Program-made: the position numbers and the translations under genes
The notes under the pieces: model-generated
What the model saw: only the letters and a program-made list of their open reading frames with translations
What the model was told of the DNA's origin: nothing
Databases searched by the model: none
In this document: in pieces, positions 10,478 through 29,467 of the stretch
How the letters are laid out: every line of letters begins with the position of its first letter
Position numbering within the stretch: position 1 is the stretch's first letter
Origin: an uncultured Spirochaetaceae bacterium
Lineage (GTDB): Bacteria; Spirochaetota; Spirochaetia; Sphaerochaetales; Sphaerochaetaceae
Direction of reading: 5' to 3'
DNA length: 64,000 nucleotides
Assembly: GCA_944389115.1 (NCBI GenBank)
Contig: CALXLE010000083.1
Location: forward strand, 417-64,416

Positions 10478-11436
10478 CAGAAATCAAGAAGCTCCACATT
10501 GAAGATAAGATAAGAATCTGGAGGAATTACCCCAGGATATCCATATTCACCGTATCCAAGTTCAGGAGGAATGATAAGAAGGCGTTTCTCCCCTTTTTTC
10601 ATGTTCTGAAGAGCCTCATTCCAGCCGTCGATAACCTGGCCAACACGGAATGTTGCAGGCTTCTCGCGTATCATGGATGAATCAAAAACCTTTCCATTAA
10701 GAAGCTCTCCCTGATAGTGAACAGTAACACTCTGTCCCATCTTCGGAGATTCGTTACCAGTTCCCTCTCTCTGGATAATATACCGTAACCCGGTAGAGGT
10801 TTTTATTGCATTAGGATATCGGTTATCAATTTCTTTCTCAACCTTTTCTTTTGCTGCCTTATGAGCCTCTCTGATCTTTTTCTCAACATTCTCAACAAGT
10901 GTTGCAAAAGATTCACCGGAAGCATCAAAGGATCCTGCATCCTTACCAACTCTGATTATCTCAACTGAATTTATACGATCGCCCTGCTCAATGCTGTTAA
11001 CCACATCCTGTCCATCAATAACGTGACCAAATACCGTATGTTTTCCATCGAGCCATGGTGTAGGTACATGTGTTATGAAGAACTGGCTTCCATTTGTACC
11101 AGGACCAGCATTAGCCATGGACAGTATTCCCGGCTTATCATGCTTAAGATCGGGATCAAATTCGTCTGGGAACCGATAGCCAGGACCACCCGTTCCATCA
11201 CCTTTAGGACATCCACCCTGGATCATGAAGTCCTTTATTACTCTATGGAAGGAAAGCCCATCATAAAAAGGAGTACCTTTATCATCAATATTCAAGGACC
11301 CCTCAGCAAGGCCAACAAAGTTGCAAACTGTCATAGGGCAGCGCTTATATTCAAGTTCAAGGAGAATATCACCCTTATCTGTATGTATTACTGCATAAAT
11401 ACCATCTTTAAGATTATTTTTATCCATCATTTTCAC
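10477..11436 (-). CDS. Dual-family peptidyl-prolyl isomerase: N-terminal cyclophilin fused to C-terminal FKBP domain
   Basis: Cyclophilin motifs [13 protein letters not shown] and [20 protein letters not shown] motifs [18 protein letters not shown] and VIDGW...IPPELGYG. Confidence 0.9.
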
Positions 11437-12416
11437 TCCGTAAAAAGTTCTCCTCCATCAGAAAGAAGAGAATATATTCTCTCAAGATCCTGCTGCGATC
11501 TATAGCGTATAAGAAGCTTACCCTTGCTGAGATTACCCTTAATCTCACATCTGTTGCCAATAGCAGAAACAAAGCGCTCCTCAATCTCAGTTATCTCAGG
11601 ATTATCATCTCTATCCTTCTTCTTAGGAACTATCTTATGTCCTTTATTGTATTCATCAGCAAGCTTTTCAGCTTCTCTAACGGATAAATCCCGCTCAATG
11701 ATCTTATCTCTAAGAAGTTTCTGATCAGAAGGATTCACTAGAGAAAGAATTGCCCGTGCATGGCCAGCAGAAATCTGACCCGAAATCAAATCATCCTTAA
11801 TCGAATCTGAAAGCGATAAAAGCCTTACAGAGTTCGCAATAGCCGATCTTGACTTTCCAACCTTTTCTGCAACCTGCTCCTGAGTCATATCCGAACGCTG
11901 CATAAGGTATTGATAAGCTGATGCTTCTTCAATTGGATTCAGGTTTTCACGCTGGATATTCTCAATGAGAGACATCTGGATTCTCTGCATCTCATTCAGT
12001 GATTTTATGATCACAGGAACTTTGCTTATTCCAGCCATTTTTGCAGCCCTGAAACGTCTTTCGCCAGCAATAATCGAATATCTACCTGGAACAATTTCCT
12101 CAACAATAATTGGCTGGATTATTCCCTGCTCTTTTATCGATACAGAAAGTTCCTTCAAAGACTCCTCATCAAAAGACTTTCTTGGCTGGTTTGGATTTGC
12201 AGAAATATTTGAAAGAGGAACATAAATTGCTGAAATCGAATCTGTTTTATCGGCCTTTTCTACCACTACCTTTGATGAAGAAACAGACGATGCAGATTCA
12301 GGTTTTTCAGAAGCTGTTGTCTTATTTATAATGTTCTCAACCTGGGAATCATAATCAAAACTTCCAAGCAAAGATCCGATTCCTTTTCCGAGACCATGCT
12401 TTTTATCACTGGACAC
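11433..12416 (-). CDS. parB: Chromosome partitioning protein ParB/Spo0J
   Basis: ParB box [13 protein letters not shown] region, and 11-nt overlap with the upstream parA. Confidence 0.9.
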
Positions 12417-13167
12417 GGCTTACAACCTCCTTGGCAAGCTCAGCAAATGCTTTCGATCCAACATTTGACTTATCGTAATAATTAATAGGAAGACCATGGG
12501 AAGGGGCTTCCGACAATCTTATTGAACGAGGAATGATTGTTTTAAAAACAACATCGCTGAAAAAGGATGAAATATCTTCAACAACCTGCTGATTAAGAAG
12601 TGCTCGCTTCTGATACATAGTAAATAATATACCAAGCGTCTTAATTTTTGGATTAAGCTGCTTCTTAACATTACTTATGGTCCTCATAATAAGATTCAGT
12701 CCTTCCATTGCAAGATACTCGCACTGAAGCGGAATGATAATATAATCCGCCCAGGCAAGTGCGTTCATTGTTTCAAGGCCCAATGAAGGAGGACAATCAA
12801 GGAGAATATATTCAAAATCATCATCTATTGATTCTAATGCTGTCTTCAGAAAATACTCCCTGTTATTCTGATTTACAAGTTCAATAGATAGCCCTGCAAC
12901 ATCCAATGATCCCGGAATAAGATATAGATTATTGAATATGGTGGATTGAACAGCGATGCTCGCAGGGACATCACCAACAATCACCTGATATATATTAGGC
13001 TTCTTCAGATCACCGGACACGGCACCGGTCAGATTGCATTGGGCATCAAAGTCTATTAACAAAACCTTATGACCCATTTCAGATAAGGCAGATCCAAGAT
13101 TAACAGTTGCAGTTGTTTTTCCTACACCACCTTTCTGATTATAGAATATAATCTTATGAGCACTCAT
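12406..13167 (-). CDS. parA: Chromosome partitioning ATPase ParA/Soj
   Basis: Deviant Walker A NQKGGVGKTT. The start is trimmed to MSAHKIIF (ATG at 13167); the longer ORF-track extension is hydrophobic junk. Confidence 0.9.
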   Translation of the reverse strand: MSAHKIIFYNQKGGVGKTTATVNLGSALSEMGHKVLLIDFDAQCNLTGAVSGDLKKPNIYQVIVGDVPASIAVQSTIFNNLYLIPGSLDVAGLSIELVNQNNREYFLKTALESIDDDFEYILLDCPPSLGLETMNALAWADYIIIPLQCEYLAMEGLNLIMRTISNVKKQLNPKIKTLGILFTMYQKRALLNQQVVEDISSFFSDVVFKTIIPRSIRLSEAPSHGLPINYYDKSNVGSKAFAELAKEVVSRVQ

Positions 13168-13282
13168 ATATTCAAAATACACAATATAAACCAGTCTGTC
13201 ATCAAAAAGATTTGCCATTAACGACAAAATCTTGACCGGAAGAGAATGCTGTAGTATCTTAAAGCAACCAAAGGAGATAAAA

Positions 13283-13534
13283 ATGGCCACAGTAAGCATA
13301 GAAGCAATTAAAGAAGCCATTGATGCAATTCGTCCTGCATTGCAGAACGATGGCGGGGATATTGAATATGTCAGCTACGATGAAGCGGAGAAAAACGTTC
13401 ATGTAAGACTTGTAGGAGCATGTGCAGGATGCCCAATGAGTCAGCTGACTCTTACAAATGGTGTTCAGCGCTACATGAGAGAGACTCTCGACAAGGAGTT
13501 AACTATCATAAATGATGGGCAGCCAAGCTTCTGA
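13283..13534 (+). CDS. NifU-like (Nfu C-terminal domain) Fe-S cluster protein
   Basis: DGGDIEYV and GACAGCPMS (CxxC) motifs. AAGGAG SD lies 6 nt upstream of the ATG at 13283. Confidence 0.8.
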   Translation: MATVSIEAIKEAIDAIRPALQNDGGDIEYVSYDEAEKNVHVRLVGACAGCPMSQLTLTNGVQRYMRETLDKELTIINDGQPSF

Positions 13535-13558
13535 TCTGTAAGCTACAAAGAAAATATT

Positions 13559-13592
13559 GCAGGAGCATTCAAACAGCTCCTGCATTTTGTTT
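13559..13592 (+). terminator. Rho-independent terminator after the nifU-like gene
   Basis: Stem GCAGGAGC (13559-13566) pairs with GCTCCTGC (13576-13583), followed by ATTTTGTTT. Confidence 0.6.
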
Positions 13593-13603
13593 CACGTGAA
13601 ACA
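13588..13603. promoter_or_regulatory. parS: parS centromere-like site (perfect 16-bp palindrome TGTTTCACGTGAAACA)
   Basis: Exact match to the canonical chromosomal parS consensus TGTTNCACGTGAAACA, about 420 bp from the parA start. Confidence 0.85.
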
Positions 13604-14726
13604 AAGCAAATATTATCTTAATCATATGCTTATATGTTTTACCAAAAGTTCTTTATCAATCTAATCGAATTGCGGAATACACGCTTTAGATAATATTGAT
13701 TGTTTAAAGAATTATCTTCTAGGATTACGCAAGCACAATAAACAATCTTTAAGAAATAGCATTCAAGAATTCTTACACTCCAATCCAATATTCGGTTTTT
13801 AACAAACAACACCGAATATTTTCCATCTATTGACATTCAAATATCCCTTTGATCGTTTATTTCCAATCCCTATAGTTTATCAATAGAAGATCAGCCAGCA
13901 TTAGATACATACAACGCAGCATTTTTCTTAGCTTCTGAATAACTATTACAATAGCTAATTCTTTGCTTTTCTATTATACATTTTCGTTGTCATTATCTTC
14001 CAAATCAGAATTTTGCTCCGACATACTCCCCAAATTAACGCCAGTGACATAATCTTTTTTCATCTAACTCTGGTTAATTAACTTTTATGCATCTGATTAT
14101 ATAAAGCATATATTTTCCTCACCTCATACTCCGCCCATGATTGTAAATAACAAATATTTCATAAGCGCAAAAAGGATAATAGATAATAATAATATTTGCT
14201 GCTTCTTTTTATGAAAACTTTTCAATCGTTCTAGAAGATCAATAATATTGTATTTTCTTCAATGTTTCACGTGAAACTATAATCCTGTTTTCTCTTTAAA
14301 ATTTTATAGACTAAATATCAGGATAAGTATATATAATTATAAGGACAAGGATACTTTTCTATTTTCAATTTTTTTACCTTGTCTAATTTCAAAAACCGCG
14401 TTTAAACGCGTAAAACGGCCATTTTTAATATATTTTTCTATTAATAGAAACAGATTCCTCAGACTTACATCCTCAATTTTCCCTATTCAATAGGTATAAA
14501 ATTCGTTTGCTGATTTAAACTCTTTTCCTTATTTGTTTCTGTTTATAAATACGGTTTTGCCTTATTTTCTAATGAATTTCCGTGCGGATGTTTTAATTTT
14601 TTGAGTCATTTTTTATAATTATATTGTTTCGATACAATTTTTATTTATTATATGATTTGCCATATTGCATATTATTATCTGACTATGCTTCTTTCCATCA
14701 TTCAACTCTCTGAGTTTCTAAAAGGT
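13604..14726. other. AT-rich, ORF-free, palindrome-rich intergenic region (about 1.1 kb)
   Basis: No ORF over 65 aa on either strand. Hand counts of single 60-nt lines give roughly 18-25% G+C, against about 40-47% in flanking coding lines. Confidence 0.7.
14263..14278. promoter_or_regulatory. parS: Second parS-like site (TGTTTCACGTGAAACT, 15/16 match)
   Basis: One mismatch at the last position relative to the palindromic parS consensus. It lies inside the AT-rich region. Confidence 0.7.
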
Positions 14727-14760
14727 CATAAAATATCGCCTGCTATAAAACAGGCGATAA
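14727..14760 (-). terminator. Rho-independent terminator downstream of gyrA
   Basis: Minus strand reads TATCGCCTG-TTTTATAG-CAGGCGATA followed by TTTTAT, about 20 nt after the gyrA stop. Confidence 0.65.
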
Positions 14761-14780
14761 TCTTTTTATTCGATAAAGCG

Positions 14781-19321: not shown

Positions 19322-19514
19322 TGTCTTCCTTTTTCACGGCTCTTAATTATAAGGCAGGCCTCGTAGAGCAGGATTGTCAAAGCATGACCTAAAGAGCCGC
19401 AATACCTTATGTATTATATATTCCAGAGTTTTTTTCATCAAGCAGGCCAGATAATTGTAAAAACTTCATAATTTATTTTATTGCTTATATATACAATGTA
19501 ATCGAAATAGATGC

Positions 19515-19553: not shown

Positions 19554-20900
19554 ATGTCTGATCTAGATAGAATTTGGAATGAGGCAGAAGCCCAGCTTGC
19601 AGAGGCTCTGCCTGAAGCAAAACGTATATATATCGATATGATTGAATACAAGGGTGAGAAGGATGGATCGATCGTTCTGGCTTTTCCCTCTGATTTCTAT
19701 AAGAACAATGCTGAAAAGAACTGCAGATCTGAGATAGAGAATACAATATCAGTCATTGCAGGCCATCATATTGATACTATTTTCATAACAGATGAGAACA
19801 GTACCAGGAAAAAAGAGCATAAGGCAAAACCCAGGACTCAATCTAAGTCAAAGACTGAGAATGCATCCAGAAATACAACTCTGAATAAGATTTATTCATT
19901 CGATAACTTCATTTCAGGTGATAACAGCAGCTTTGCATTCAATGCAGCAAGAGTAATAGCTCAGAATCCAGGTACAAGCTATAATCCATGCCTCATCTAT
20001 GGAGGTGTAGGTCTTGGTAAGACCCATCTTCTTCAGTCGATTGGCAATTACATAGATGAGCATAATCCGAAGATGAAGATTATCTATGTCACGGCAGAGA
20101 ATTTTACCAATGAGTTCATAAACTCGCTTCTTACCGATAAGGCATCAGCTTTCAAGATCAAATACAGAAGCGTTGATGTGCTTCTTATCGATGATATACA
20201 TTTTCTGCAGAAGAAGAACCAGATACAGGAAGAGCTCTTCCATACATTCAATGAGCTTTATGATAATCATAAGCAGATAGTACTTACCTGCGATAGGCCT
20301 ATAACAGAGCTTACAGATATAACAGACAGGCTCAAGACAAGATTCAGAAAAGGACTGAATGTAGATCTTCAGCCACCTGCATATGAGACAAGAATGGCAA
20401 TCGCGATACAGAAATGCAGAGAAAGAAACTATAAGCTCGATAATAATGTGCTGGAATTCATATGCCAGAGCATAGATACGAATATAAGAGACCTGGAAGG
20501 TGCTCTTACAACGCTGAGCTCATTTTCAGAACTTGTTGGCAAACCTATAACGCTGGATATAGCAAAAGAGCATCTCAAGAATTTCATTGTAGAACCTGCT
20601 ATAAAGAACAATGATATCTCTATTGATATGATAATCCGCAAAACGGCATCCTATTTCAATATAAAAGAGTATGATATCAAGGGTAAAAGCAGAAATAAGA
20701 ACATTATTCTGGCAAGACATATATCAATATATCTTTCATCAAAGCTGACGTCCTACTCTCTGTCTGAGATAGGAAAGATGATGAATGGAAAGGATCATAC
20801 AACGATAATGCATTCAGTTGACAGGATAAAATCCCTTATAGATACAGATGAATCTGTAAGAAATGCTGTCAATTCAATAGAAAGCAGCCTGATGGAATAA
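19554..20900 (+). CDS. dnaA: Chromosomal replication initiator DnaA
   Basis: AAA+ Walker A GGVGLGKTHL, box VII, and the C-terminal DNA-binding motif ARHISIYL...DHTTIMH. The start is taken at MSDLDRIW. Confidence 0.95.
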   Translation: MSDLDRIWNEAEAQLAEALPEAKRIYIDMIEYKGEKDGSIVLAFPSDFYKNNAEKNCRSEIENTISVIAGHHIDTIFITDENSTRKKEHKAKPRTQSKSKTENASRNTTLNKIYSFDNFISGDNSSFAFNAARVIAQNPGTSYNPCLIYGGVGLGKTHLLQSIGNYIDEHNPKMKIIYVTAENFTNEFINSLLTDKASAFKIKYRSVDVLLIDDIHFLQKKNQIQEELFHTFNELYDNHKQIVLTCDRPITELTDITDRLKTRFRKGLNVDLQPPAYETRMAIAIQKCRERNYKLDNNVLEFICQSIDTNIRDLEGALTTLSSFSELVGKPITLDIAKEHLKNFIVEPAIKNNDISIDMIIRKTASYFNIKEYDIKGKSRNKNIILARHISIYLSSKLTSYSLSEIGKMMNGKDHTTIMHSVDRIKSLIDTDESVRNAVNSIESSLME

Positions 20901-20901
20901 G

Positions 20902-21172
20902 TTTTCCACAGGCTGTGGAAAAGTCAGTGGAAAACCTGTTGAAAACATATTGATAACCTGTGCATATCAGCATAAGTTTTCCACAGGCCTGAAAGACAAA
21001 GAGAAGCAACATGTGGAAACTGTGGAAAACCCACCATTGTTTTACACATAGTTATCCACATTCTAATTCATTTGTATGCAATGCATTATCATAGTTTTCC
21101 ACAATTAGTCAGCCTATTATTATTACTACTATCATCTATTTATGATAATATTAACAATAATAGGAGCACTTT
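20902..21172. promoter_or_regulatory. oriC: oriC candidate 1: DnaA-box cluster plus AT-rich stretch in the dnaA-dnaN gap
   Basis: Boxes: TTTTCCACA at 20902, 20977 and 21095. TTATCCACA at 21052. TTTTACACA at 21040. Reverse TGTGGAAAA at 20914 and 21021, TGTGGAAAC at 21012, AGTGGAAAA at 20926 and TGTTGAAAA at 20937. An AT-rich segment at 21104-21172 abuts dnaN. Confidence 0.75.
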
Positions 21173-23732: not shown

Positions 23733-23900
23733 ATGAGTTACAAGGGAAAGAGAACCTATCATCCAAGCAAGATGAAGAGGACAAGGAAGTTCGGTTTCCG
23801 TGCTAGAATGGCTACAAAGGGAGGCCGCTTGGTTCTTGCTCGCCGCCGTGCAAAGGGCAGACACAGCCTCACGGTCAGCGATGAGAAGAAGCCTTACTAA
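23733..23900 (+). CDS. rpmH: 50S ribosomal protein L34
   Basis: 55-aa ORF, too short for the ORF track: [55 protein letters not shown]. It carries the hallmark GFRARM...RRRAKGR. Confidence 0.9.
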
Positions 23901-27330: not shown

Positions 27331-27844
27331 GAAGAATCTTCAGGCAGCGTTTGCTGGTGAGAGCCAGGCAAGAAACAAGTACACATACTTCGCTTCCAAG
27401 GCAAAGAAGGAAGGATATGAGCAGATTGCAGCTATCTTCCTTGAGACAGCTGAGAATGAGAAGGAGCATGCTAAGCTTTGGTTCAAGTATCTCGAGGGTG
27501 GTGATATCAAGTCTACATCCGAGAATCTCAAGGCAGCTGCAGAGGGCGAGAACTATGAGTGGACAGATATGTATGCTGAGTTCGCTAAGGTAGCTGAGGA
27601 AGAGGGATTCAAGGAAATCGCAGCAAAGTTCAGGGGCGTTGCAGCGATTGAGAAGCATCATGAGGAGAGATATCTTGCTCTTCTTAAGAATGTGGAGGAA
27701 GGACTCGTATTCTCAAGAGATGGCGAGATGATCTGGAAGTGCAGAAACTGCGGTCATATCGTGGTAGGAAAGAAAGCTCCTCAGATGTGCCCAGTATGTG
27801 CTCATCCTCAGGCATATTTTGAGCTTGTTGGACAGAACTACTGA
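27305..27844 (+). CDS. rbr: Rubrerythrin
   Basis: Di-iron ExxH motifs ([19 protein letters not shown]) and a C-terminal rubredoxin-like CRNCGH...CPVC. Confidence 0.9.
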
Positions 27845-27910: not shown

Positions 27911-28075
27911 CCCTGATCTTTGTTTTGCTCCAGCTATTTCAGCTTTTTTTACTGCATCATATTATTCTGATTTCTGATTATGGATTGTGTTTATCATCTG
28001 ATTTCATATCCAATGGTCTGGGTATTCATTCAATGGAGGATAATAATAGTCCGTTAGAAGGACACTACATATGGT

Positions 28076-28348
28076 TTTTCCACAGGTTTTCCACAGGTTT
28101 GTGGAAATGCAGTGGAAAAGTCCCTGAAAGCGGTGGAAAACTCGGTTTGCCTAATCTTTGCCTACAGATATTATTTTTCTGATAACTTCTTTAAATATAT
28201 AGAGTTAAAAATAGTCAATACAATAAGAAAATTATTGGATTTATATAAAATCTACATTAAGAGGATGTTTACTTTTCCACCGTTTATATCCAGTTATTCA
28301 CTGAGTTTTCCACAGGTTTTCCACAACATTGTCTACATACTATCCACA
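28076..28348. promoter_or_regulatory. oriC-like locus 2: nine DnaA boxes flanking a ~130-bp AT-rich core
   Basis: Forward TTTTCCACA at 28076, 28087, 28306 and 28317, TTTTCCACC at 28273, CTATCCACA at 28340. Reverse TGTGGAAAT at 28100, AGTGGAAAA at 28111, GGTGGAAAA at 28132. AT-rich core at 28141-28272. Confidence 0.75.
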
Positions 28349-28411
28349 GGCTAATTCGCAATGTATAAGGGAGTTAGCAGGAAGATAGTACACCATGTAT
28401 GTTTTATGGTC

Positions 28412-29467
28412 CTAGTGTACTTCTTCCTCATCAATCCCAAGATGATGGAGCATTATCATCGAGAACAGCTCCCTTACATTGCCTGGATAGTCATAATCCA
28501 TGAAAGATGTGTAGTCTAGTATTCTGTTATTCGGATGTATTCCTATAGAGGCTTCAAAGTGGGAAATAAGCTCTGGTATATCTTCCTTATGCTCTGCAAG
28601 GCTTGGCATCCTTATCATCACTGGAGAGAGTCTGTAATAGAAGTCCTTCCTCAGTTTGTTTTCCCTCAGCAGTTCCTTCAGATCGATATTCGATGCTGTT
28701 ATCAGGCGAAAAGCCGATTTGAGTACCTTATCCTTTCCAAGCTGTCTGTATTCACCTGTCTCAAGGACATGCAGCAGCTTTGACTGCATACCAAGGCTCA
28801 TATCCTCGATTTCATCAAGAAAGAATGTATTGCCATCAGCTCTTCCGAGAAGACCTTCCCTTTCTTCCGTAGCTCCGGAGTATGCGCCTTTTGAATGGCC
28901 GAAGAATGAGCTTTCAGCTAACTCTGAGGAGAGCAGGCCGCAAGATTCATAGATGAATTCCGATCTGCTTCCGCTCCTTTTGTGGATTTCCTTTGCGGCA
29001 ATATTCTTTCCGGTTCCAGTCTCGCCTGAAAGATGGACTGTGCATCCTGCGTCTATTGCTCTTTTGATTCTTCCGCGAGTCTTCTCCATTATTCCTGAAC
29101 TGCCGATTATGCTTTCCTCAAGAGAATCTATTTTCTCTGTGATTCCTGATGCTAGAGCCATTGCGTTTGCGATATCTTCTTTCAATGAACCTCGTGGGAT
29201 GTATACGGCATTTCCATATATAAGGAATGGATTGATATTGAGGAATTCACTGGCATCATAAAAGACAATGAAGCATAATGCCTTTCCTTTTTCTTTCTGA
29301 ATCTCATATGGCAGTCCTGCTGCAAGATCCATTATTATTGTGTCCTTCTTTGTTATCGGCAAAGAAATAAGATGGTCTGAGGACCGGCATGTCTGGATTT
29401 CCCGTGAATTTATGAAGCTTTTAATGCATTCCGCGTCTTTACGCTCGATGCTGTGCAAGTAGTACAA
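28412..29467 (-). CDS. Sigma54-interaction-type AAA+ ATPase (bacterial enhancer-binding protein core) with an unknown N-terminal domain and no C-terminal HTH
   Basis: Walker A GETGTGKN, Walker B FFLDEIEDM, and the loop GAYSGA in place of GAFTGA. Also R-finger region FYYRL, and YPGNVREL about 18 aa before the C-terminus. TTG start with a G-rich SD. Confidence 0.8.
   Translation of the reverse strand: MYYLHSIERKDAECIKSFINSREIQTCRSSDHLISLPITKKDTIIMDLAAGLPYEIQKEKGKALCFIVFYDASEFLNINPFLIYGNAVYIPRGSLKEDIANAMALASGITEKIDSLEESIIGSSGIMEKTRGRIKRAIDAGCTVHLSGETGTGKNIAAKEIHKRSGSRSEFIYESCGLLSSELAESSFFGHSKGAYSGATEEREGLLGRADGNTFFLDEIEDMSLGMQSKLLHVLETGEYRQLGKDKVLKSAFRLITASNIDLKELLRENKLRKDFYYRLSPVMIRMPSLAEHKEDIPELISHFEASIGIHPNNRILDYTSFMDYDYPGNVRELFSMIMLHHLGIDEEEVH

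Follow-up and report, generated by a model that had tools for sequence, protein, structure and literature searches.

The question raised by this locus is what a second, strictly built putative DnaA site is doing about 7 kb from the replication origin of a gut spirochete. DnaA regulation is poorly understood outside Proteobacteria and Firmicutes, and to our knowledge spirochetes lack the known regulators Hda, SeqA and YabA; the element bears on whether datA-like control exists in Spirochaetota. An earlier note on this DNA had offered three readings of the locus, namely the real unwinding site, the distal half of a widely split origin, or a datA/DARS-like site acting on DnaA. We analysed the whole 64-kb stretch, called the window below, together with related loci from other Spirochaetaceae. 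As read from these sequences, the element is with a probability of roughly 55% a conserved, non-coding, non-origin putative DnaA assembly site of the datA/DBC(/DARS) class, which would regulate initiation.

All nine DnaA-box 9-mers claimed by the earlier note were found at the positions given there, between 28076 and 28348 of the window, around an AT-rich core. They occupy an intergenic gap whose length of 567 bp was confirmed: rbr lies on the plus strand with its stop at 27844, and the AAA+ gene lies on the minus strand with its stop codon at 28412. The two genes are thus convergent, and because the gap separates two 3' ends, no promoter is needed there. The boxes are enriched over background within the 64-kb window, as 36 matches to TTTTCCACA with at most one mismatch were counted, compared with 14.45 +/- 4.12 in shuffled sequences, none of which reached 36. 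Exact copies of TTTTCCACA number nine in the window and are all in two places, five at 20902-21103 and four at 28076-28325. The features of the element, from left to right, and of its right-hand neighbour are the following.

28062..28074, no strand assigned: flank motif, consensus ACGCTAnATATgG, directly left of the left pair; its alignment columns are invariant
28076..28095, plus strand: left tandem pair TTTTCCACA-GG-TTTTCCACA, exact matches to the consensus DnaA box, starting at 28076 and 28087, 11 bp apart
28100..28119, minus strand: two inverted boxes, TGTGGAAAT and AGTGGAAAA, oriented toward the left pair; the second of them contains an invariant GTGGAAA
28132..28140, minus strand: extra inverted box GGTGGAAAA, present among the relatives only in the window species and in L007
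28141..28272, no strand assigned: AT-rich core, 75.8% AT, with a moderately conserved block at about 28181-28260 (TAAtTTCTTttAATATAaagAatTAAA ... TtTATATAaaat)
28273..28281, plus strand: inner-right box TTTTCCACC
28306..28325, plus strand: right tandem pair TTTTCCACA-GG-TTTTCCACA, starting at 28306 and 28317, exactly 230 bp from the left pair
28340..28348, plus strand: box CTATCCACA, which is TTATCCACA in several relatives
28412..29467, minus strand: AAA+ gene of the bacterial enhancer-binding-protein type, no HTH; constant right neighbour in all loci

The 11-bp spacing of same-orientation pairs and the AT-rich stretch at 28141-28272 are thus as previously described. Within the core, the segment 28163-28263 (82% AT) has the lowest duplex stability of any 100 bp in the 64-kb window. 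The two tandem GATA-initiated 14-mers reported in the core, which we considered as 13-mer-like repeats, did not hold up, since they share only 8 of 14 bases and the relatives do not conserve that stretch. Most relatives have an inverted TGTGGAAAA adjoining or overlapping the inner-right box; this inverted box is degenerate in the window. The flank motif is possibly a -10-like element for leftward transcription.

The relatives comprise contig CALXMP010000001.1, whose YidC is 98% identical to that of the window, seven further GTDB species-representative MAGs with a common gyrA-gyrB / dnaA-dnaN-recF-dciA-rpmH-rnpA-yidC-jag layout, and more distant relatives reached via orthologues of the AAA+ neighbour (38-80% identity). 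Conservation of the cluster, one of the checks named in the earlier note, was borne out: the element is kept in 17 related Spirochaetaceae loci, whose neighbour proteins are 38-98% identical. Fifteen of these loci were measured directly and two come from a metagenome scan; L010 was uninformative, as other genes follow rbr and the contig ends there. The scan used the twin-pair pattern of the element, with a free gap of 195-225 nt allowed. Of its 19 matches, two are from this clade, both with the pairs separated by exactly 210 nt (that is, 230 bp between pairs), while the other 17 are in sequences without homologues of the window genes. The one of these 17 that was inspected, L035, is an ORF-free TTTTCCACA-like tandem-repeat tract.

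The left tandem pair is present in all 15 loci measured, and the distance from pair to pair is 230 bp in 12 of them and 229 bp in three, i.e. about 22 helical turns, with both pairs on the plus strand. The right pair lies 81-107 bp from the AAA+ gene stop codon, and the centre is 76-88% AT, in every locus measured. This constancy does not extend to all of the sequence between the boxes: in 11 loci the mean pairwise identity of the box pairs is 94% and that of the central core block 55%, compared with about 32% in the neighbouring spacer (+65..+105) and in the right flank, which is the random level for the base composition. As the geometry is constant while parts of the sequence between the boxes are at random level, the architecture itself must be selected. 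The dnaA-dnaN array, in contrast, differs in length among loci, measuring 192 to 224 bp from its first to its last box. The first of the two inverted boxes at 28100-28119 is degenerate in L012-14. The variant TTTTTCACA occurs as boxes in the dnaA-dnaN gap of L024 and in the element of both L024 and L029; the presence of the same variant at both oriC and the element would be expected if DnaA is the protein that binds at both sites. Periodicity analysis of the A/T tracts in the core gave one peak, at 10.5 bp (z=3.4 relative to shuffles, for related sequences and 18 periods tested), and this phasing suggests, although it is only suggestive, that the core is intrinsically curved.

The surroundings of the element are conserved only on the side of the AAA+ gene. 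Its left neighbour is rbr in the window, L007-9 and L011, a gene for a pfkB-family sugar kinase in L012-14, L023, L024, L026 and L029, ssb in L025, aroA in L030, and in L027 a 537-aa ORF to which no function was assigned. The nine genes reported to separate the element from dnaA in the window were confirmed (dnaN, recF, DciA/DUF721, rpmH at 23733-23900, rnpA, yidC, jag, fur and rbr). Counted from dnaA, the element is 7 kb away in the window and about 8-12 kb away in L011-L014, L024-L026 and L029. For L023 and L030, the 10 kb fetched past the element contained no gene of the dnaA region. In every locus containing both, the element is on the dnaN side of the origin. As both the left neighbour and the distance to dnaA vary, the element is independent of both. 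The rearrangements around the element are all on one side only.

The conserved unit does not appear to be a gene or an RNA. Across 12 phase-aligned loci, no shared open frame exceeded 19 codons, and the one of that length lies over the box pair, so that a small protein gene was dropped. A non-coding RNA was also dropped, RNAalifold on 11 loci having given only the trivial box palindrome with no compensatory pairs; Rfam returned no match above noise for the 19-30 kb region of the window. Promoter-like sites in the element are at or below the shuffle expectation and their positions are not conserved, and no intrinsic terminator was found after the AAA+ gene in any locus scanned. The IHF consensus WATCAANNNNTTR has no match in the element; this consensus is that of E. 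coli and may not suit spirochete HU/IHF-like proteins.

Which of the two box clusters, then, is the unwinding site? The gap between dnaA and dnaN contains the following features.

20902..21103, no strand assigned: ten DnaA boxes, the box array of the probable true oriC
21095..21131, plus strand: unit resembling a basal unwinding system, made of a box TTTTCCACA, a 10-nt spacer and six trios, CTA TTA TTA TTA CTA CTA (21114-21131)
21132..21172, no strand assigned: AT-rich DNA that follows the trios as far as the dnaN ribosome-binding site and start codon

The triplet 5'-CTA-3' is the complement of the 3'-GAT-5' DnaA-trio (3'-GAT/AAT-5'). A TTTTCCACA box followed after 7-13 nt by CTA/TTA triplets and an AT-rich run was found in 11/11 loci with a dnaA-dnaN gap, the box being tandem in L012-14, and in the window the segment 21114-21154 is the least stable 40 bp. 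When units made of a DnaA box, up to 16 nt and CTA/TTA trios were scored, the trio score was 4-6 at dnaA-dnaN (11 loci) versus 0-2 in the element (14 loci, either strand); in these 14 loci no DnaA-trio run was found beside any box of the element on either strand. The basal unwinding system (BUS) is defined by a box, a spacer of 0-16 bp and at least three DnaA-trios, and such a unit was reported in 85% of 2070 predicted origins (PMC8287927). The distribution of GC skew points to the same place. Per-gene coding-strand GC skew was modelled as the sum of a transcription term and a replication term for the 45 genes of the one 64-kb window, and after this strand correction the replication skew switches at 18.5-21.7 kb and not at 28 kb, with a residual sum of squares of 60 versus 86 for whole-gene skew and of 186 versus 248 for GC3 skew. 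When the genes were bootstrapped 1000 times, at most 0.3% of replicates had their best position at 28 kb, and an origin at 28.25 kb gave a poorer fit than one at 21 kb in at least 99.7%. This skew evidence for an origin at dnaA-dnaN is supportive rather than decisive. Compared with a BUS-type origin, the element therefore has the box cluster and an easily melted AT segment and lacks the trio unit and the skew switch. Since the trio unit is found at dnaA-dnaN only and the skew switches at 18.5-21.7 kb, the element is probably not the unwinding site, and the proposal that it is the real one is not supported. In this species only, a CTATTATTA run is present on the minus strand at 28041-28049, on the wrong side of the boxes.

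Of the readings proposed earlier, a datA/DARS-like DnaA site fits best, given the one-direction boxes, the fixed spacing, the bendable AT core, the non-coding nature of the element and its proximity to the origin. In E. coli, datA stimulates hydrolysis of DnaA-bound ATP, and deleting it raises ATP-DnaA and leads to untimely initiation. The site is intergenic, is located downstream of two transcription units and near oriC, is duplicated soon after initiation, and has its essential boxes in one direction with a bend site between them, in optimised orientations and intervals (PMC5742627). The element resembles datA in being non-coding, near oriC and downstream of two transcription units, and in having same-direction pairs, a putative bend region and a fixed interval, both pairs being on the plus strand and 229-230 bp apart in 17 loci. 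It shows no sequence homology with datA and differs from it in several other respects. The boxes of datA (7-2-IBS-3) lie within 183-262 bp, whereas the element has two tandem pairs 230 bp apart; the element lacks the E. coli-type IHF consensus and has extra inverted inner boxes; and its distance to oriC is 7 kb, compared with about 470 kb for datA in E. coli. DARS sites bind ADP-DnaA preferentially and bring about ADP release. The DARS core consists of three boxes with fixed spacing, of which box I is opposite to boxes II and III (PMC5742627). The head-to-head arrangement of two rightward and two leftward boxes at fixed spacing in 28076-28119 recalls that of DARS1 and DARS2, whose core is defined by boxes in a head-to-head order, but the element does not have the three-box layout and its dominant conserved features are the same-direction pairs.

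The DnaA-box clusters (DBCs) of B. subtilis are stably occupied by DnaA in vivo, and their deletion leads to early initiation. They are made of consensus boxes in intergenic gaps close to oriC, one of them at thdF-jag; jointly they repress initiation, and some regulate their neighbours, while the genes downstream of potential DnaA-binding clusters differ between Bacillus species (PMC3245932). The element likewise consists of clustered consensus boxes in an intergenic gap, outside oriC and a few genes from dnaA. It belongs to another phylum, and it has one position and one geometry clade-wide, whereas the DBC study describes no fixed-spacing twin-pair architecture (PMC3245932). Another parallel is oriCII of Pseudomonadaceae and Halomonadaceae, a family-wide second origin-like DnaA-box cluster located a few genes from dnaA, which is dispensable for chromosome replication, replicates as a plasmid and regulates gidAB-parAB in a DnaA-dependent manner (PMC13438810). 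The element, also a second box cluster a few kb from dnaA and conserved at the family level, differs from oriCII in that it is intergenic and at a gene 3' end, while oriCII overlaps the gidA promoter and 5' coding region.

In the model that we favour, DnaA would nucleate cooperatively on each box pair, and the two DnaA assemblies would touch across the bent or looped AT core, a step that an HU/IHF-like protein may assist. The resulting nucleoprotein complex would sequester DnaA and/or alter its nucleotide state. Copied seconds after initiation at dnaA-dnaN, the element would double in dose at once, and this early copying would allow its dose to feed back on DnaA activity and hence on re-initiation. 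The effect on initiation could be either negative, as for datA and DBCs, or positive, as for DARS. By analogy with the E. coli and Bacillus sites, the element most likely tunes replication timing instead of starting replication. Catalytic, datA-like action is more plausible than bulk titration, which in its simple form would need more than nine to ten boxes. The activity of datA is sensitive to transcription running through it (PMC5742627), and read-through from the AAA+ operon may similarly modulate occupancy of the element, as proposed for datA.

A DnaA-controlled transcription element, in which the boxes would control a promoter within the core or next to it, or form a roadblock that ends the ctp-rsmE-AAA+ operon, is unlikely as the primary function of the locus, although such a role is compatible with a DnaA assembly site and the two are not mutually exclusive. 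Such a promoter would originally have driven the pfkB-family kinase gene and would drive a non-coding or antisense transcript in this species. In L012-14, L023, L024, L026 and L029 the element indeed has the AAA+ stop codon on one side and, on the other, the start of the pfkB-family gene, which reads in the same direction; this position directly upstream of a pfkB-family gene in at least seven lineages counts against our preferred reading, as a transcriptional role could be primary. The conserved -10-like motif that adjoins the left pair and the lack of an intrinsic terminator after the AAA+ gene in the loci scanned are also consistent with a role in transcription, and B. subtilis DBCs and P. 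aeruginosa oriCII control neighbouring genes in addition (PMC3245932; PMC13438810). However, the element is intact, with the same 230-bp spacing, in loci without pfkB (the window, L007-9 and L011), and it is intact where ssb (L025) or aroA (L030) separates it from pfkB. In addition, promoter-like sites are no commoner than in shuffles and are not conserved in position, and two pairs 230 bp apart with about nine boxes go far beyond the needs of a simple operator.

The distal-half proposal is weakened, and we regard it as improbable that the element is the remote half of a split origin. Here, DnaA bound to the element would loop over at least 7 kb to the dnaA-dnaN array and be needed in cis, or be strongly stimulatory, for unwinding; the element would then stand in for the boxes clustered upstream of dnaA in B. 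subtilis and H. pylori. In both of these species the bipartite origin is split by dnaA alone. The spirochete locus has in common with them two DnaA-box clusters of which only one has an unwinding unit, and the usual upstream partner is missing, as no DnaA box was found in the gyrB-dnaA gap of the window by scans for TTTTCCACA, exact or with at most one mismatch. Consensus boxes are as numerous in the element as in oriC, and the element is on the same side in every locus containing both. The clusters of described bipartite origins are about 1.4 kb apart and span dnaA only, whereas here, instead of clusters immediately flanking dnaA, nine genes separate dnaA from the element. This distance is not conserved either (7 kb, about 8-12 kb, and beyond the 10 kb fetched in L023 and L030), and the internal 230-bp geometry is far tighter than any link to oriC. 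Action over some distance has a precedent, since the distal DnaA box of B. subtilis acts via a DNA loop in either orientation and at all distances tested, up to 462 bp (PMC6669920).

The element could also be a conditional or dormant second origin, the AT core being a DUE opened by DnaA bound on both sides. Its box / AT-rich / box layout is that expected for such an origin, and transcription of the AAA+ operon reads toward the element, as mioC transcription reads toward E. coli oriC. No other 100 bp of the window melt as easily as those of the core, a DUE-like property that speaks against our preferred reading and for a second origin. A precedent exists in Pseudomonas oriCII (PMC13438810), but a second origin at this locus is very unlikely, since the DnaA-trio run typical of predicted origins is missing beside every box (PMC8287927), the core-proximal boxes in the window point away from the core, and the skew switch is at dnaA-dnaN. 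The convergence of the flanking genes in the window, which would set both forks head-on with transcription, is a minor point, as the gene-strand bias is weak. Indeed, the co-orientation bias of genes in the window is weak overall and the orientation argument was given little weight. It is decidedly unlikely that the element is either an obligatory remote origin component, looping over at least 7 kb, or a conditionally fired second origin that opens the AT core without DnaA-trios; if either were true, this would be an origin architecture not described in any bacterium.

The statement of the earlier note that any of its readings would be unusual for this lineage is overstated, since the kind of element is already known: DBCs (PMC3245932), datA and DARS (PMC5742627) and oriCII (PMC13438810) are documented. 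Our literature search found no comparable DnaA-box cluster described for Treponema-type spirochetes. The present element is distinguished by its architecture, in which two tandem pairs stay 229-230 bp apart on either side of a putatively curved AT core and are tied clade-wide to the 3' end of one gene. The constant 230-bp geometry, the diverged intervening sequence and the boxes that co-vary with the dialect of the origin make it a clean natural experiment, and it provides a 340-bp substrate for studying how DnaA assemblies on two phased pairs communicate across bent DNA. It is also a warning for origin predictors, in that the cluster ranking second for DnaA boxes need not be an origin, even when it has an AT-rich core.

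The strict tie of the element to the 3' end of the AAA+ gene is left unexplained by a pure DnaA-buffer model, and on this point counts against our preferred reading. The earlier note had called this neighbour an AAA+ gene; its product is more exactly a sigma-54-interaction-domain protein without a DNA-binding HTH. The protein has an intact Walker A motif and a GAYSGA loop, kept as GA(F/Y)(S/T)GA in orthologues. A role of this protein as a DnaA modulator was considered and dropped, as this loop and the standard enhancer-binding-protein motifs make it look like an ordinary sigma-54 activator that lacks an HTH.

In the gap between dnaA and dnaN, which carries the DnaA-box array of the probable true origin (oriC, 20902-21103), one segment has the layout of a textbook basal unwinding unit.

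21095-21172, dnaA-dnaN gap: a box, a 10-nt spacer, six CTA/TTA DnaA-trios and then an AT-rich run

This unit is kept in 11 related loci and is likely to be the site where the origin opens. On the promoter side of dnaA, the gyrB-dnaA intergenic region (19322-19514) contains no DnaA box. This lineage therefore lacks the upstream cluster, autoregulatory or of the oriC1 type, that is usually present.

Further left, ~5-7 kb from dnaA, lie two partition sites within a tract of low GC content.

13588-13603 and 14263-14278: two parS sites, one (TGTTTCACGTGAAACA) exact to the consensus, the other with one mismatch
13535-14780: AT-rich stretch of 1.25 kb, ~33-37% GC

Two parS matches in the window compare with 0.06 expected by chance, and a ParA-like gene (12406-13320) adjoins them. 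The AT-rich stretch that encloses both sites separates a NifU-like ORF from the end of gyrA and holds no ORF of more than 65 amino acids. Several duplex segments within it rank among the least stable of the window.

The second element, nine DnaA boxes at 28076-28348 around an AT-rich core, is flanked by one constant gene, and short conserved motifs lie outside its two tandem box pairs.

28062-28074: conserved motif left of the box pairs, ACGCTAnATATgG
28353-28381: conserved motif right of the box pairs, TAAnT...GAnTTA
28412-29467, minus strand: constant neighbour, a 351-aa AAA+ protein of the enhancer-binding-protein type

The left motif is similar to a -10 element for leftward transcription. 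The AAA+ protein has an N-terminal domain of ~110 aa and no DNA-binding HTH, and no intrinsic terminator was detected after its gene.

In the related lineage L024 the DnaA-box variant TTTTTCACA is used both at oriC (20560-20860) and at the second element (11072-11515). The same variant occurs in the element of a second lineage, L029 (11072-11514), for which boxes were compared at the element. This shared variant suggests that DnaA specificity co-evolves with all of its sites.

The twin-pair pattern (two tandem box pairs with a free gap of 195-225 nt between them) also matched 17 metagenome contigs, none of which carries homologues of the genes of the window. The one that was inspected (L035, 4450-4900) consists of tandem repeats resembling TTTTCCACA that extend over a long stretch with no ORF, and it appears to be satellite-like DNA and not a DnaA site.

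Among the 17 related loci that carry the element, all rearrangements are on the side opposite the AAA+ gene. As separate observations, an ssb gene immediately adjoins the element in one lineage (L025, 11527-11952), and in L029 pfkB and rbr are separated by an inserted pair of restriction-modification genes of the Tsp45I type (12543-14398).
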